A stretch of 64,000 nt of DNA from Candidatus Saccharimonadota bacterium (GTDB taxonomy: Bacteria > Patescibacteriota > Saccharimonadia > Saccharimonadales > Saccharimonadaceae). Positions 1,929-61,341 of this stretch are shown in pieces. Each line of letters opens with the position of its first letter. Position 1 is the stretch's first letter. Below the pieces are notes generated by a model, which was not told where the DNA came from, ran no database searches, and saw only the letters and a program-made list of their open reading frames with translations. The translations under genes and the position numbers were made by a program. The stretch spans positions 4,120 to 68,119 of the forward strand of contig JAFUCF010000012.1 in assembly GCA_017459845.1 (NCBI GenBank). The letters are read 5' to 3'.

Positions 1929-1957
1929 TTGACGAACAGAGTTTTTTGGTGTATACT
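1929..1957 (+). promoter_or_regulatory. Sigma70-type promoter of tRNA-fMet
   Basis: TTGACG (1929-1934), 17-nt spacer, TG-containing extension, TATACT (1952-1957), ending 11 nt before the tRNA. Confidence 0.7.
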
Positions 1958-1968
1958 CGTAGGTATAT

Positions 1969-2045
1969 CGCGGGGTAGAGCAGCCTGGTAGCTCGTTTGG
2001 CTCATAACCAAAAGGTCGTTGGTTCAAATCCAACCCCCGCCACCA
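1969..2045 (+). tRNA. Initiator tRNA-fMet (CAT)
   Basis: Cloverleaf CGCGGGG...CCCCGCC-A-CCA; anticodon CAT at 2003-2005; C1 unpaired (C1:C72) and A11:U24 are initiator hallmarks; CCA is encoded. Confidence 0.95.
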
Positions 2046-2251
2046 CGATAAGCCTCCAGTGAGGCCTTTTTTACTTGGGAACCAACGTAGCGTCCCAAGG
2101 GGCTAGCGTTGGTTCAAATCCAACCCCCGCCACCACGATAAGCCTCCAGTGAGGTTTTTTAAATTGGGAACCAACGTAGCGTCCCAAGGGGCTAGCGTTG
2201 GTTCAAATCCAACCCCCGCCACCACGATAAGCCTCCAGTGAGGCCTTTTTT
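2017..2251 (+). repeat. Tandem 90/89-bp repeats (about 2.6 units), each with the tRNA-fMet 3' end, a terminator and a 32-nt core
   Basis: CGTTGGTTCAAATCCAACCCCCGCCACCACGATAAGCCTCCAGTGAGG starts at 2017, 2107 and 2196; TTGGGAACCAACGTAGCGTCCCAAGGGGCTAG occurs in units 1 and 2. Confidence 0.95.
2050..2072 (+). terminator. Intrinsic terminator after tRNA-fMet, repeated in each tandem unit
   Basis: GCCTC-CAGT-GAGGC followed by CTTTTTT. Confidence 0.65.
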
Positions 2252-2260
2252 GTGCTATTA

Positions 2261-2692
2261 TCAGGCGCCAAATAGGAACGACATCCACTTCTCAAAATTG
2301 GTGCGTGTATCTTCTTGATCTTGGGTGATAATATTGTTATTCTCGGATTGATGTTTAGTCTTGGCGCGCTCTGTATTCTTAGGGAGGTAGACCATAATTT
2401 CACCATCGTACATTTTATTCTGCTTAGCACGGGCGGCAAGCTCTTGGTATTCTTCTGAGGCATAGTATTGGTTTTCTAGCTCAGCGGACTCTACTTCTAA
2501 TTCTAAAATCCTCAGTTCCTTCTGGCGGGAAGAAACCCGCTGCTCTAGCTCCCAGTTTCTAGCAACGGAAGATATCGTGCCCCAAACACAGGCAGCAAAG
2601 AAAAGCAGCGCTACGACAAAAAGGAATTTGTCCAGCGGGAAATCGTGCTTGATGTTGTATTTTATCTTACGCAATTTATTCTGCATAGACAC
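2261..2692 (-). CDS. Septum formation initiator (FtsB/DivIC-like) protein
   Basis: Single N-terminal TM helix, coiled coil, and EEYQELAARAKQNKMYDGEIMVYL resembling the FtsB E..AR..L...GE motif. Confidence 0.65.
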   Translation of the reverse strand: MSMQNKLRKIKYNIKHDFPLDKFLFVVALLFFAACVWGTISSVARNWELEQRVSSRQKELRILELEVESAELENQYYASEEYQELAARAKQNKMYDGEIMVYLPKNTERAKTKHQSENNNIITQDQEDTRTNFEKWMSFLFGA

Positions 2693-17041: not shown

Positions 17042-18379
17042 CTAGAGCTTTTCTGACAAAAATCGTTTTAATAAGAATGTTAAGAAATATGGAAAAGTAT
17101 AGAATTTACCGTTAAACCCTATGTTTTTGTATCCTAGCTTGATACCATATTTGATATCCTTGTATTTCTCTTCATCAATAAGGTGGTTCAGAGACGGCGT
17201 CGGGCCATCATTTGCCTTTACTTCTACCGGAACAAGCGTATTTGCGTCGCGCAAGAAAAAGTCCATTTCTATAGTGCTCTTTTCGTTTTTATAGAAGAAC
17301 AGTGGCTCACCAGATTTCCTAAGTTCGTCGGCAACAATATTTTCATAGATTGCACCCTTATAGGTATTAAAATTCTGGTTGTTTCGCAAATCTTCTTGTG
17401 CCTCATCATCTAGAGAGCCTATTAGAAGACCAGAATCTCTGAAATAAAGCCTATAATTGTCTGGGTTATAATTTCCTTTGAGTGGTAGACTGGCACTTTC
17501 AAGGCAATAGCAAACATTGACAATTCCGGCGCGATCTAGCCAGTCGACTACCCCAATATACTCTCTGTTTCTTGCATTGTTGCTAATTTTAGAAATTTGG
17601 AACTTTTTATTTTCATTCCCAAGGAATACTGGTATCTTTCGATAGACATTGAGAATTTTAGTCTGTTCTAGGCCAGAGGCGTATTTTGTAATATCTTCTT
17701 CGTAATCTGTAATGATTTGCCGTTGCAAGGCAAGTGTCCCCTCGTAATTCTTTTGCTTCATAAAAGTAAAAACAATCTCAGGCATACCACCGACTATCAT
17801 ATATTCTTTGAAATTATCAAACATGACTTCAATTTCTGTACTTGAAAGCGGCTCAATAGACTTCATATGTTTGAAAAGATTTTCAATCTGTTCCCCGCTA
17901 TATCCTTTGGCCCAAAGAAACTCTTCAAAATCTAGCGAATTCATTTCGTAATCTTCCTTGTTGCCGACACTGTTTGATTCGATTTCATTGTAATTTAGCC
18001 CCATCATGGAACCAGAACATATCACATCGTAACGCCCATCTTCATTAAAAGATTTGAGGGAGGTCGCGCAACTTGGGCAGTCTTGCAATTCATCGAAAAA
18101 GAGCAGCGTGCCCCCTGGCTCGAATGATAAATTTGGGTTAATAAGAGAGATATTTTTAATGATTGTATCAACTTCAAAGCCATCATCGAAGATTTTTTTG
18201 TACTGACTTTGGAGTGCGAAATTAATTGTTATAATATTATGGTAATGGTTTTTGGCAAAATGAGTAACAGCTTCCGTTTTGCCGATTTGCCTTGCACCCC
18301 TAATGATAAGAGGTTTATGTTCTGGATTGTTTTTCCAATCAATAAGGAATTGATCAATTTTTCTAGTTAATCTTTCCAT
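17042..18379 (-). CDS. AAA+ ATPase (AAA_14 + DUF4143 family)
   Basis: GARQIGKT Walker A, FFDELQ Walker B, GGMPE, LYFRDSGLL, GAIYEN and EMDF..PVEVK nuclease-like tail. Confidence 0.88.
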   Translation of the reverse strand: MERLTRKIDQFLIDWKNNPEHKPLIIRGARQIGKTEAVTHFAKNHYHNIITINFALQSQYKKIFDDGFEVDTIIKNISLINPNLSFEPGGTLLFFDELQDCPSCATSLKSFNEDGRYDVICSGSMMGLNYNEIESNSVGNKEDYEMNSLDFEEFLWAKGYSGEQIENLFKHMKSIEPLSSTEIEVMFDNFKEYMIVGGMPEIVFTFMKQKNYEGTLALQRQIITDYEEDITKYASGLEQTKILNVYRKIPVFLGNENKKFQISKISNNARNREYIGVVDWLDRAGIVNVCYCLESASLPLKGNYNPDNYRLYFRDSGLLIGSLDDEAQEDLRNNQNFNTYKGAIYENIVADELRKSGEPLFFYKNEKSTIEMDFFLRDANTLVPVEVKANDGPTPSLNHLIDEEKYKDIKYGIKLGYKNIGFNGKFYTFPYFLTFLLKRFLSEKL

Positions 18380-57595: not shown

Positions 57596-58984
57596 GTGTT
57601 TGATGTGTGGAAAAATGTCTTAGCAGATATAGAACAGTCTGTACCCCATACTATTTATATCACCTTCTTTACCCCTACTAAGCTTATTTCTATTGAAAAC
57701 CAGGTAGTAAAAATTGGTACGCCAAATGTGTTTGTTGTAAGGCAACTCCGGGGCAAGTATAATAAAAATGTTATAGCAGCGCTACAGAAAAACGGTGTAG
57801 ACTTTAAGGAAGTAGAATATATAGTGGAGTCTTCCACAAAAATTAAAAAGAAAAGCTCTGGCCGCGAGGTTTTAGAAAAAGATGTAAAAACCGCTAGCTC
57901 TGTAGTAAAAAGCCTACCAAGCAAGCTACCGGAAAAGCACGCGAAAATACTCGGCACCGGGCTAAACCCAAATTATACTCTAGATTCGTTTGTGGTGGGC
58001 TCTAATAATGACCTAGCCGTATCTATCGCTAAGAATGTTATTAAAAACCCTGGCTCTAAATATAACCCCTTCTTCTTATACGGTGGTCCTGGGCTTGGAA
58101 AAACCCACTTGGTGCAGGCAATCGGGAATGAAATTATTAAGCTTCACCCAGAAATAAAGGTGCTTTATACTCCAACTAATCATTTCTTTTCTGAATTTAT
58201 TGAGTTGATTAAGAAGAATAGAGGCGATGAGTTTGCCCAGAAATATCGGAAACTCGACGTTTTAATTATTGATGATTTTCAGCAGATTATCAATAAGGAT
58301 AGAAGCCAGGAGGAATTCTTTAATATCTTTAATGATTTACATCAGGCTAATAAACAGATTATCGTTACCTCTGATAGGTTGCCAGAACAGATTGAGAAAT
58401 TAGACGTAAGGCTATCCTCTAGACTAACCTGGGGTTCTGGGGCGATTGATTTACAAATGCCAACCTTTGAAGATAAATGCGCAATTTTACGCTCGATGGC
58501 AGAGATTGGTGGATATGAGATTGAGGATGAAGCAATAGCCTATCTTGCAGAAAATGTTAAAACTAATATCCGTGATTTAGAAGGCCAACTACACAGATTA
58601 ATTGCAATTGCAGAACTTCGTAATAAAACACCGCTTGAAATTATCAATGATAGCTCCATAGGCGAGGTAGTAGTACTAAGCAGAGCTAAAGGTGGGGCTA
58701 TCCAGCCAAGGAAAATAGTTGAAAAGGTGGCTAAGGCTTATGGGTTAACCGTGGAAGAAATGACTAGCAAAAGCAGAGTCTCGCATATCAAGAACGCACG
58801 GCAAGTCGCAATGTATTTACTACAGGAGGAGGCAAATCTTTCTACTAATAAGATTGCTTCAGAGGTGGGTGTGAAAGACCACTCTACGGTGATGCATGGG
58901 ATTAGGAAGATTAAGAAGGATTTAAAACTAGATTTTGGCTTGAGAGAACAAATATCTTCTATTCGTGGGAGCCTATATGACTAA
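57596..58984 (+). CDS. dnaA: Chromosomal replication initiator DnaA
   Basis: GGPGLGKTHL, LIIDDFQ, SRLTWG, IRDLEG and KDHSTVMHG; GTG start after AAGGAGG. Confidence 0.97.
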   Translation: MFDVWKNVLADIEQSVPHTIYITFFTPTKLISIENQVVKIGTPNVFVVRQLRGKYNKNVIAALQKNGVDFKEVEYIVESSTKIKKKSSGREVLEKDVKTASSVVKSLPSKLPEKHAKILGTGLNPNYTLDSFVVGSNNDLAVSIAKNVIKNPGSKYNPFFLYGGPGLGKTHLVQAIGNEIIKLHPEIKVLYTPTNHFFSEFIELIKKNRGDEFAQKYRKLDVLIIDDFQQIINKDRSQEEFFNIFNDLHQANKQIIVTSDRLPEQIEKLDVRLSSRLTWGSGAIDLQMPTFEDKCAILRSMAEIGGYEIEDEAIAYLAENVKTNIRDLEGQLHRLIAIAELRNKTPLEIINDSSIGEVVVLSRAKGGAIQPRKIVEKVAKAYGLTVEEMTSKSRVSHIKNARQVAMYLLQEEANLSTNKIASEVGVKDHSTVMHGIRKIKKDLKLDFGLREQISSIRGSLYD

Positions 58985-58987
58985 TTT

Positions 58988-59225
58988 AGTGGAAAAATTG
59001 CGAAAAAATTCGTGGAAAAATAGGTGGGAAAGTAGTGGGAAAGTTTCCACTTTTTTGACAGAATATATGTTTTATGATGATAAGCTGTGGAATATGTTCG
59101 GTTTTTCACAGGGTTTTTGGCAGCTTTCCACAATATTTTCCACCGAACTTTTGTTCGGTTTTACAGAGGTTAGGGAGGTAGATTTCCACTTTTACACATA
59201 GCCTATTACTACTATTATTAAATAT
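58988..59225. other. Replication origin oriC: DnaA boxes plus DnaA-trio unwinding element
   Basis: About 11 NTTTCCACN-like boxes in both orientations; last boxes at 59182-59198, then GCC, TATTACTACTATTATTA (59204-59220) and an AT run; gene orientation switches from mostly minus to plus around here. Confidence 0.85.
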
Positions 59226-59242
59226 TTAAGAAAGGAAGAATT

Positions 59243-60349
59243 ATGGAAATTGAAGTAACACAAGAAAAATTATCAAAAGCTCTAGCCGTAGTAAGTAGAG
59301 TGGCAGCAAGTGCTAGAACTACTCTACCAATCCTTTCTAATGTTTTAATTAGGGCTGAAGGAAATAAGGTAAGCCTAACGGCTACTAATTTAGATATGGC
59401 CGTAGTAGAATATGTTCCAGTAATTTCGGCTAAGGATGGGGTAATAACTGTACCAGCTAGATTATTATCAGAGTTTGTTGGCAACTTACCAAAGGGAGAG
59501 AAAATCTCGATTAAGACCGATGGTATAAAAGTAAAGATATCGGCTGATAACTATCGTTCTACTATTAATGGTGTAGTGGCAGATGATTTTCCGGAATTGC
59601 CAGAGATTGATGAAAAAGAAGCAGTAAAATATGAGATAGGTGTAGATGAATTTAAAGTAAGACTATCTGAAGTAATTGTGGCAGTAAGTAATGATACGAC
59701 TAGACCAGCTCTTACAGGCGTGTATTTTAATACGGATGGAGGAAATTTATATGTTGCAGCGACAGATGGATATAGACTGGCAGAAAATAAGATAATATCT
59801 GGGGTATCCTCAGAGGTTAAGGCGATTGTACCAGCGAATTCCTTACAGGAGGTACTTCGTTCCCTTTCGGACGATATGGAAAAAATCGAAATTTTATTTG
59901 ACGAAGCTCAAGTAAGATTTAGAATGGGGGAAATCGAAATTACTTCAAAATTAATTGATGGAACTTTCCCAGATTACAGAGCTTTAATACCAAAAGAGAC
60001 AGAGATAGAGCTCGTTCTAGATAAAAGCGAATTGATTAGAATTACGAAAATGGCGGCAGTTTTCTCGCGAGAGGTAAATCAATCTATTGTTTGTGAGATA
60101 GATGCTGAAAAAAGTGTATTTATAGTGTCATCTATTTTGAATGAAGTTGGGGAAAACCGCTCGGAAATCAGTGTAAAAGCAGAAAAGAGTGGGAAGGTAA
60201 AAGTAGATTCAAGATATTTAATGACAGCATTCAACGCGCTAGAGGAGCCGATGGTGCGATTTGGGATGTCTGCTAAAATTGGACCAGTTTTAATACGAAA
60301 CGAAAAGAGTAATGACTATCGCCATCTAGTGATGCCACTTGATATATGA
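59243..60349 (+). CDS. dnaN: DNA polymerase III beta clamp
   Basis: LPILSNVLI, ATNLD, RPALTGV, VAATDGYRLA, LIDGTFPDYR and LVMPL. Confidence 0.97.
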   Translation: MEIEVTQEKLSKALAVVSRVAASARTTLPILSNVLIRAEGNKVSLTATNLDMAVVEYVPVISAKDGVITVPARLLSEFVGNLPKGEKISIKTDGIKVKISADNYRSTINGVVADDFPELPEIDEKEAVKYEIGVDEFKVRLSEVIVAVSNDTTRPALTGVYFNTDGGNLYVAATDGYRLAENKIISGVSSEVKAIVPANSLQEVLRSLSDDMEKIEILFDEAQVRFRMGEIEITSKLIDGTFPDYRALIPKETEIELVLDKSELIRITKMAAVFSREVNQSIVCEIDAEKSVFIVSSILNEVGENRSEISVKAEKSGKVKVDSRYLMTAFNALEEPMVRFGMSAKIGPVLIRNEKSNDYRHLVMPLDI

Positions 60350-61341
60350 TAATTAAAGATATTAAATTAAGTAATTTTCGTTGCCATAAAGAATATGGGC
60401 TAGATTTTGATACACACACTACGCAGATTTTAGGCGAAAATGGTTGGGGAAAGACATCTGTGCTCGAGGCGATATATCTGGCGGTGCAAGGTAAGAGCTT
60501 TAAGGCGGTAGATAGAGAAATCTTAAGGCGAGGTGCGGAATTTTATAGAGTAGAATTATCATTCTTAAATGGTGAAAAAACTACGGTAGTATATGATGAA
60601 GGGATAGCAAAAAAGTCTTTTTTAATTACAGATAAAAAATGGGCGAGATTACCTAAGAAAAACCGTTATCCAGTAGTATTATTTGAGCCGGCGGATTTAT
60701 CTTTAATTACTTCTAGTCCGACAAGGCGGCGGGATTATTTTGACCGTTTTTTGGCTCAGCTTTTTGACGAATATAACCATTCCCTATCGCAGTATAATAA
60801 GGCATTAAAGCAAAGGAATGAGCTATTAAAAAAAGAATATGTAAGACAAGAAAATTTATTCCCTTGGAATATTTTACTTGCTAGATACGGTGTAAAGATA
60901 CGAATGATGCGAGCTAGATTAGTGGCAAACCTGAACGATAGTCTAACTGGAGTATATCGCGGAATTGCGGAAAATCGAGATGAAGTGGCTTTAAAATATG
61001 ATTCTTATACGGGCGAGGCTTTAGAAAGTGAATATCTTAGATTACTTGAGATGGATTACAACCGAGACGTTTTGACTGGACATACAAACTTTGGTATACA
61101 TAAAGATGATTATATTTTTCTATTTAATGGAGTACCGGCGGATGGGACGGCATCACGGGGAGAGATGCGCTCGGTGATATTAGCTTTAAAATTTGTTGAG
61201 GCAGAAATGTTATTTGAGGATTTAAGGCGGCGACCACTAGTTTTATTAGATGATGTGTTTTCAGAGCTGGACGATACTAGGCAGAAGGCATTAGTGAAAA
61301 ATTTTCAAGAAAACCAAGTAATACTGACAAGTGTTAAATAA
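60346..61341 (+). CDS. recF: DNA repair protein RecF
   Basis: NFRCH, GENGWGKTS, RRDYFD, ASRGEMRS and LLDDVFSELD. Confidence 0.93.
   Translation: MIIKDIKLSNFRCHKEYGLDFDTHTTQILGENGWGKTSVLEAIYLAVQGKSFKAVDREILRRGAEFYRVELSFLNGEKTTVVYDEGIAKKSFLITDKKWARLPKKNRYPVVLFEPADLSLITSSPTRRRDYFDRFLAQLFDEYNHSLSQYNKALKQRNELLKKEYVRQENLFPWNILLARYGVKIRMMRARLVANLNDSLTGVYRGIAENRDEVALKYDSYTGEALESEYLRLLEMDYNRDVLTGHTNFGIHKDDYIFLFNGVPADGTASRGEMRSVILALKFVEAEMLFEDLRRRPLVLLDDVFSELDDTRQKALVKNFQENQVILTSVK

Follow-up and report, generated by a model that had tools for sequence, protein, structure and literature searches.

A polymorphic tandem repeat of the initiator tRNA 3' end and its conserved quasi-palindromic core in Candidatus Saccharibacteria

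Tandem repeats that recreate the 3' end of a tRNA gene have a precedent in the tyrT-tyrV region of Escherichia coli. The analysis of this region in E. coli K-12 showed a unit of 178 bp repeated 3.1 times, which overlaps the 3' end of tyrV, and both rttR and tpr are annotated there; the tyrT precedent, cited in an earlier note on the DNA considered here, holds. In addition, copies of tRNA 3' ends are produced by site-specific integration. Such fragments are what integration normally leaves behind (PMC9897764), and the T-stem is one of the known crossover subsites in tRNA-gene integration (PMC4383910). Decayed att-flanked elements and tandem accretions have been described as CIMEs (PMC5704250).

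The array described below was found in a window of 64,000 nucleotides (64 kb, the whole stretch of DNA that was analyzed) from a member of Candidatus Saccharibacteria. These bacteria have tiny genomes with one initiator tRNA gene, and their mobile DNA and small RNAs are little known. The repeat of the tRNA 3' end that makes up this array is genuine and polymorphic, its quasi-palindromic core is conserved, and the array is kin either to the tyrT-type repeats or to a mini-CIME-like att relic. A cassette located at the initiator tRNA marks either a recombination system that targets this gene or a conserved trailer RNA.

The initiator tRNA gene and its 3' array

The tRNA-Met(CAU) gene of the locus (Table 1) was assigned to the initiator type according to its sequence, namely, the 5' CGCGGGG acceptor strand and the C1xC72 mismatch. 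The acceptor stem of the second tRNA-Met, encoded at 2752-2827, is fully paired. Two G-C pairs adjoin the anticodon loop of the initiator tRNA, the canonical number being three, and relatives such as L016 have C1xA72 instead of C1xC72. A promoter homologous to that of the window is kept in the corresponding locus of a sister species (L001), and no promoter-like sites were predicted inside the array units.

The array sits between two convergent genes, that of the tRNA (plus strand) and that of a 141-aa protein (minus strand). The product of the flanking oxidoreductase gene (505-1923) has its best homologues in ruminant-gut Candidatus Saccharibacteria MAGs, the nearest other species showing 79% amino acid identity. 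The gene content of the window is that of an ordinary chromosome and includes glycosyltransferases, an epimerase, an ABC transporter and YidC. The dnaA-dnaN-recF cluster located at 57596-61341 indicates that the window adjoins a probable replication origin, and the cumulative GC skew climbs along the window. A gene encoding an AAA_14/DUF4143 ATPase (17042-18379) was observed amid the genes of cell-envelope glycosyltransferases.

Directly 3' of the initiator tRNA gene, cassettes of 89-90 bp form a tandem array with the layout A-X-B-A-X-B-A-X, where A is the tRNA's 3' end (29 nt), X is a terminator hairpin (27-29 nt), and B is the core (32 nt). According to the analysis in the Tandem Repeats Finder program, the repeat at 2017-2250 has a period of 89 and 2.6 copies with 95% matches and a score of 440. 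In the 64-kb window, the 25-mer GGTTCAAATCCAACCCCCGCCACCA is present in three exact copies (at 2021, 2111, and 2200) and the core B in two exact, identical copies (at 2075 and 2164). Neither was detected elsewhere in the 64 kb with up to three mismatches, and 100 shuffles gave 0 matches. These results bear out the earlier description of tandem repeats composed of the tRNA 3' half, a terminator and a core, as well as the observation that the sole difference between units 1 and 2 lies around the T-tract (GAGGCCTTTTTTAC vs. GAGGTTTTTTAAA). As for the core at other tRNA genes, which the earlier note had considered, neither the window nor ~200 kb of related loci contained a further copy when up to nine mismatches were allowed.

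Three terminator-like hairpins are predicted, one per unit, with stems of 5-7 bp followed by a T-tract and energies from -7.1 to -7.4 kcal/mol. The last of them, X3, is the native terminator of the locus; in L020 and L022, the empty alleles, it follows the tRNA directly.

Several other classes of repeats were considered and rejected. In a CRISPR-like array, the conserved part would be as long as 61 nt, and the "spacers" X are near-identical. The RNA repeats of type III toxin-antitoxin systems are not consistent with the downstream gene, which is convergent and is not a same-strand toxin gene. As for a protein-coding repeat (tpr-like), the ORFs that overlap the array are all short, with 20-86 aa, and the 61-aa ORF that crosses it (2106-2288, minus strand) has no words in common with 5.8 billion proteins. 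A dispersed REP- or MITE-like element was rejected since, besides the lack of further copies in the sequences noted above, the unitig depth matches the local copies only.

Table 1. Features of the initiator tRNA locus in the window
Feature	Position	Strand	Remarks
Promoter-like site TTGACG-17-TATACT, 10/12 matches	1929..1957	+	sigma-70-like; the sole such site serving the tRNA and the array
tRNA-Met(CAU) gene with encoded CCA	1969..2045	+	ARAGORN; Rfam RF00005, 64.2 bits
A1, 29-nt 3' terminus of the tRNA, starting one base 5' of the T-stem and running through CCA	2017..2045	+	
X1, weak intrinsic-terminator hairpin GCCTC-CAGT-GAGGC (2052-2065) with T-tract	2046..2074	+	-7.4 kcal/mol
B1, 32-nt core TTGGGAACCAACGTAGCGTCCCAAGGGGCTAG	2075..2106	+	30/32 identical in the sister species
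42-nt quasi-palindrome, core with the first 10 nt of the A copy; arms GAACCAACG / CGTTGGTTC	2076..2117	.	MFE hairpin
A2, second copy of the tRNA 3' 29 nt	2107..2135	+	
X2, variant terminator hairpin (2140-2157) with T-tract	2136..2163	+	sole part differing between units
B2, second, identical copy of the core	2164..2195	+	quasi-palindrome 2165-2206
A3, third copy of the tRNA 3' 29 nt	2196..2224	+	
X3, terminator hairpin (2231-2244) with T-tract	2225..2251	+	
Gene of a 141-aa protein, family not assigned	2261..2686	-	right boundary of the array; no Pfam or PHROG match

The left arm of the core, GAACCAACG, exactly matches, in reverse complement, the T-stem 5' strand CGTTGGTTC that opens segment A; an inverted 9-mer match to the T-arm was reached by 13 of 2000 shuffles. 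The inner pairs TAGC/GCTA and CCC/GGG complete the quasi-palindrome. The core contains no recognisable copy of the 5' two-thirds of the tRNA, and its interpretation as a degenerate copy of the D-arm or the anticodon arm was rejected as not significant (593 of 2000 shuffles score equally). The earlier note had correctly described the core as structured and had missed the inversion of the T-stem 5' strand, the 42-nt quasi-palindrome and the conservation between species.

The MFE fold of the B-A RNA is the pairing of CCAACGTAGC with GCTAGCGTTGG (-22.6 kcal/mol, z = -2.2, 99% of the ensemble). All three pairings that had been proposed for the core exist, but they are not equal: the TTGGGA/TCCCAA hairpin alone has -5.9 kcal/mol, and the minihelix arrangement (H1 + T-arm + GGGG:CCCC) has -17.3 kcal/mol with a T-arm pair probability of 0.011. 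According to one explanation of the array, each B-A unit yields a CCA-ended RNA of ~45-60 nt that imitates the acceptor/T-arm domain of tRNA-fMet. The GGGG/CCCC pairing together with the T-arm can indeed be drawn, and the 3' end of such a molecule is the authentic acceptor strand with CCA. However, this structure is 5.3 kcal/mol worse than the hairpin sequestering the T-stem, and its helix is broken by a 5-nt bulge. In the Rfam tRNA clan (CL00001), the best match of the units is tRNA-Sec with 14.8 bits and E = 4, the threshold being 29-47. In addition, the T-loop and the T-stem 3' strand of A have decayed in a divergent lineage that retains the palindrome. The suggestion of the earlier note that the units are a source of small tRNA-mimic RNAs is disfavoured by the folding and Rfam analyses and seems very improbable.

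Variation between strains and the cassette of a sister species

In four gut-metagenome runs, the X-B-A and B-A junctions are present in Logan unitigs. In run X1, the unit-2 variant has a depth of 5, the flanks have 4.7-5.8, and the B-A junction has 10, which corresponds to a three-copy allele as in the window. In run X3, the depths are 0 for the unit-2 variant, 73 for X-B-A and 54-63 for the flanks, which indicates a two-copy allele. Alleles of the same species were retrieved using the identical 141-aa protein; their flanks are identical and their unit counts differ. There are no extra units in L020 and in L022 (a distinct strain, with SNPs), one in L019, and two in the window, while L018 contains a 100-N scaffold gap inside the array and its unit count is not readable. 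Other runs contain 119-nt unitigs in which the first and last 30 nt coincide, i.e., circular unitigs with a period of 89 that originate from the arrays of further lineages. The 89-90-nt period is kept in at least four lineages.

An assembly artefact, in which the repeat would be mis-joined or inflated, was a concern of the earlier note. The short-read scaffolds of the species do break or hold an N-gap at the tRNA/array (L011, L018). However, all junctions of the three-copy allele are present in independent unitigs at the expected, consistent depths, the alleles with zero units and one unit were assembled independently, and the cassette was also found in NCBI MAGs of another species, so that this explanation is extremely unlikely. 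Short-read contigs or unitigs of several lineages (L011, L006, L032, L033, and L036) stop inside the tRNA-fMet gene, and the locus thus systematically breaks the assemblies of these genomes. The array itself breaks short-read assemblies at the initiator tRNA locus, and it could serve as a strain-typing marker for ruminant-gut Saccharibacteria.

Units are gained and lost between strains. Since the strains differ in unit number, the working mechanism was taken to be slippage, or else unequal crossing-over, between the A+X repeats of 58 nt.

In the sister species (oxidoreductase P0003), L001, L002, and L004 carry one extra cassette of 90 nt with the structure X'-B'-A, where X' is TGAATACGTTTCCAGAGAAGCCATACGGT, B' is CTGGGAACCAACGTAGCGTCCCAAGGGGCTAT, and A is the same 29 nt. 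In L003 and L005, whose protein is identical to that of the cassette strains, the cassette is absent, and a different, native terminator is located directly after the tRNA. The comparison of related genomes proposed earlier thus revealed a cassette present in some strains and absent in others, but no larger integrated element. X' is homologous to the X of the window, its hairpin GTTTC/GAAGC corresponding to GCCTC/GAGGC; the U-tract is missing, and the energy is -2.9 kcal/mol. X' is not derived from the sequence located 3' of the tRNA in the sister species itself. Judging by these sequence comparisons, the cassette is inherited as a unit of its own.

In L001, the cassette lies 5' of the native terminator, between the tRNA and the real terminator. 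Since the cassette of the sister species precedes the native terminator and its X' has no U-tract, it is predicted to lie within the transcription unit and to be co-transcribed. In the cassette strains, an 8-nt tandem duplication, TATTGATA, was observed directly after the last copy of the tRNA end (L001 5655-5675 vs. L003 3690-3700).

Between the window and the sister species, the oxidoreductase gene shows 71.5% identity at all positions and 43% identity at third codon positions. The tRNA is identical at 76 of 77 positions (L001), segment A at 29 of 29, and core B at 30 of 32, while spacer X matches at 18 of 29-33. The difference in conservation between B and X is significant in the Fisher test (p = 5e-4), and the differences between the core variants of the two species are confined to the two terminal bases of the core. 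Since B retains 30 of 32 bases while the third positions retain 43% and X has diverged, the core is constrained and not neutral. The conservation of B at the level of the tRNA next to a spacer that has drifted speaks both against neutrality and against the unit having been transferred recently as a whole.

In the most divergent array lineage (runs X3 and X6), the contigs align only over 2076-2117 with 4-5 differences. The spacer is different in this lineage, and A has decayed in its T-loop and T-stem 3' strand, with the palindrome kept. Retrieval of the lineage anchored on proteins gave plain tRNA loci or contigs that stop inside the tRNA.

Possible origins of the cassette

The reading favoured here, tentatively and with a little under an even chance of being correct, combines unequal crossing-over, which expands and contracts the array, with a founding cassette that is a decayed relic of att-type recombination. 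The copy number would change, in the simplest case, through unequal homologous crossing-over at the 58-nt A+X direct repeats or through slippage of replication between them. The founding cassette would be a decayed relic of site-specific recombination at the tRNA T-arm, i.e., a miniature att-flanked element with no genes left (CIME-like). The palindrome may be a putative recombinase-binding site, conserved through recognition in trans or through exchange between lineages, and gene conversion would keep the A copies identical to the tRNA. The effect on the host is probably small, with weak terminators stacked between two convergent genes.

A conserved core together with dispensability and with presence or absence among strains is typical of self-propagating or recombinase-recognised DNA. 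The geometry fits an attR-type tRNA fragment: the 3' piece lies downstream of the gene with its orientation unchanged, extends to the end of the tRNA and has its left boundary at the T-stem. An analogous layout in two Clostridia MAGs adjoins conjugation genes. As for the att scars of repeated integration and excision suggested in the earlier note, the locus is indeed a recombination hot spot, but repeated cycles are not needed since unequal crossing-over explains the copy series.

Searches for a parent element argue against the att-type origin. No integrase or other mobility gene was detected among the 26 ORFs of the window scanned with Pfam (no match to PF00589), no distal att copy was found in 62 kb downstream, and no larger element with the core was seen. 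The 61-nt interval between the tRNA 3' copies contains no credible ORF. The core 29-mer gave 0 matches in IMG/VR, and the core 21-mer gave 0 matches in 185,579 GTDB species genomes and 0 matches in JGI metagenomes. BLAST analysis of the core against phage and plasmid records revealed nothing but chance matches in phages and no matches in plasmids. In viral contigs, a search for the palindrome arm with the T-arm next to it on the 3' side yielded a single chance match, located inside a coding region. Candidate attP sites in viral contigs with the tRNA 3' 25-mer were rejected since they proved to be complete phage tRNA-Met genes. Such complete genes were observed in the IMG/VR phage contigs L029, L030, and L031, where the last 25 nt are those of the Saccharibacteria initiator tRNA and the 5' parts differ.

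In addition, the X inside the window units is identical to the chromosomal terminator, as local duplication predicts, and the 14-10-14 palindrome is unlike the canonical core of tyrosine recombinases (about 11-13 / 6-8 / 11-13). An interval of 90 bp is at or below the size excised efficiently by known recombinases. The position of the sister-species cassette between the tRNA and the real terminator equally suits a functional trailer RNA.

Such an RNA, similar to rtT, is the main rival to the att-type origin, possible though doubtful. The cassette would be part of the 3' external transcribed spacer of the tRNA, and terminator read-through, or obligatory co-transcription in the sister species, would lead to a processed small RNA. 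Its functional part would be the conserved 14-bp hairpin composed of B and the T-stem 5' strand, acting, e.g., as a protein-binding or stabilising element or as a sponge. The conservation of the palindrome at the level of the tRNA, not shared by the spacer, is consistent with this, as is the dominance of the hairpin in the predicted fold (-22.6 kcal/mol, 99% of the ensemble). The L001 cassette is predicted to lie inside the transcription unit, the terminators of the window are weak (5-bp stems, -7.4 kcal/mol), and E. coli tyrT yields RttR from an analogous repeat. However, no transcript of the array, another subject of the earlier note, was found: the core occurs in no indexed RNA run, and the one matching metatranscriptome (run X12) holds the tRNA alone. 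The array is dispensable since empty alleles exist in both species, its copy number is unconstrained, and the units have no internal promoter. Moreover, the core variants, whose differences are restricted to the base at either end, leave no room for covariation, and no Rfam family matches the cassette units.

Neutral local duplication is unlikely as the origin of the cassette. A single error of replication at the T-arm, either a fold-back or a template switch, would create the inverted 9-mer and a short direct repeat, which slippage would then expand. The likeness between species would result from occasional DNA exchange by natural transformation together with self-templated repair of the palindrome, and neither a recombinase nor a function would be involved. 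The X copies of the window equal the native terminator, the T-stem 5' strand recurs exactly, in inverted form, as the left arm of B, and nothing mobile is located nearby; the core is confined to the locus, and the B-A depth in run X1 corresponds to two local copies. All these data agree with a local event. On the other hand, B is 94% identical between species in which synonymous sites are saturated (43%) and the X of the same cassette retains ~60%. The cassette of the sister species was not made from the flanking sequence of that species, and at least four lineages share the 89-90-nt period.

A bolder proposal, which is quite improbable, is that the palindrome and the tRNA end form a self-propagating cassette of ~90 bp at Saccharibacteria initiator-tRNA loci, served in trans by a T-arm-specific recombinase, or else encode a hairpin RNA that modulates the maturation of tRNA-fMet. 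In the former case, the cassette would be the smallest att-flanked mobile unit described. In the latter, the hairpin RNA, pairing with the T-stem strand of tRNA-fMet, could modulate the maturation of the sole initiator tRNA. If the array is only a relic combined with slippage, it represents a tidy but ordinary case of tRNA-flank plasticity.

Related tRNA-fMet loci and known systems

Within the Saccharibacteria clade, the tRNA-fMet locus shows great plasticity. In other species of this clade, a partial 5' copy of tRNA-fMet, comprising the acceptor 5' strand and the D-arm (~27 nt), was observed in L012/L013 (4455-4630), L014 (4365-4545), and L007 (5570-5830). It is followed by the conserved CCTCGTTGTGACGGCTCATGAGCCAACTAGTGGC, whose similarity to the tRNA stops in the anticodon loop. 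Between L012 and L014, which have an identical oxidoreductase, the whole tRNA cassette is inverted, and the promoter and terminator flanks differ. In L007 (5580-5660), a degenerate pseudo-tRNA-fMet adjoins the real gene; it has no 5' acceptor strand, and a GGGCC/GGCCC hairpin replaces the T-arm.

Analogues in unrelated bacteria were obtained by scanning, with a gap allowed, for a tRNA-fMet 3' end present twice. In the Clostridia MAGs L023 (4233-4597) and L024 (5098-5461), tRNA-fMet is followed by ~70 nt and a copy of the last 35 nt with its own terminator. The next ORF encodes 216 aa, after which a T4SS coupling protein and a T4SS pilin are encoded, all within ~1 kb; a conjugative element has probably integrated at tRNA-fMet here. 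In the sediment metagenomes, namely, L025 (48-406), L026 (13939-14297), L027, and L028 (567-926), tandem units are located 3' of a tRNA-fMet without an encoded CCA. The units resemble the tRNA from the D-loop onward, and CCCGC-loop-GCGGG replaces the anticodon arm. There are three copies in L025 and two in L026 and L027, and in the diverged L028, the pseudo-tRNA part is conserved and the spacer is not.

Like the array of the window, the Clostridia (L023/L024) and sediment (L025-L028) loci consist of tRNA-fMet, ~60-70 nt with a short hairpin and a copy of the 3' part. They differ from it in their unrelated spacers, none of which has an inverted T-stem arm. The left boundary of the copy lies in the variable loop in Clostridia and in the D-loop, with the anticodon arm replaced, in the sediment contigs, whereas here it lies at the T-stem.

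The Islander signature of tyrosine-integrase islands and prophages, an intact tDNA and a downstream 3' fragment in the same orientation that reaches the gene end (PMC4383910; PMC9897764), is also seen in the array, where the fragment begins one base 5' of the T-stem. However, Islander islands have a length of 2-200 kb and an integrase gene, whereas the interval between the copies in the array is 61 nt with no ORF, and the window has no integrase. Direct repeats of the target 3' end around gene-less DNA form a structure that would be compatible with a CIME. The known CIMEs measure kilobases, and their parent ICEs or IMEs can be identified, whereas the "element" found here is 61 nt long and has no parent in the collections scanned.

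By analogy of layout, the closest functional analogue is the tyrT array of E. coli, which shares no common sequence with the saccharibacterial one; blastn-short analysis revealed only 7-8-mers (E > 2) and no homology to the tyrT unit. The unit has a length of 89-90 bp here and 178 bp in tyrT-tyrV, and the tRNA part of each unit is 29 nt (the whole T-arm to CCA) vs. ~19 nt. Unlike the E. coli units, each array unit has a terminator hairpin of its own and a quasi-palindrome that involves the T-stem. The copy number was shown to vary between strains in Saccharibacteria, whereas a processed RNA (rttR/rtT) is known for E. coli. In both systems, tandem direct repeats start in the tRNA 3' end, with each unit recreating the terminal segment, and are located 3' of the last tRNA in the same direction of transcription.
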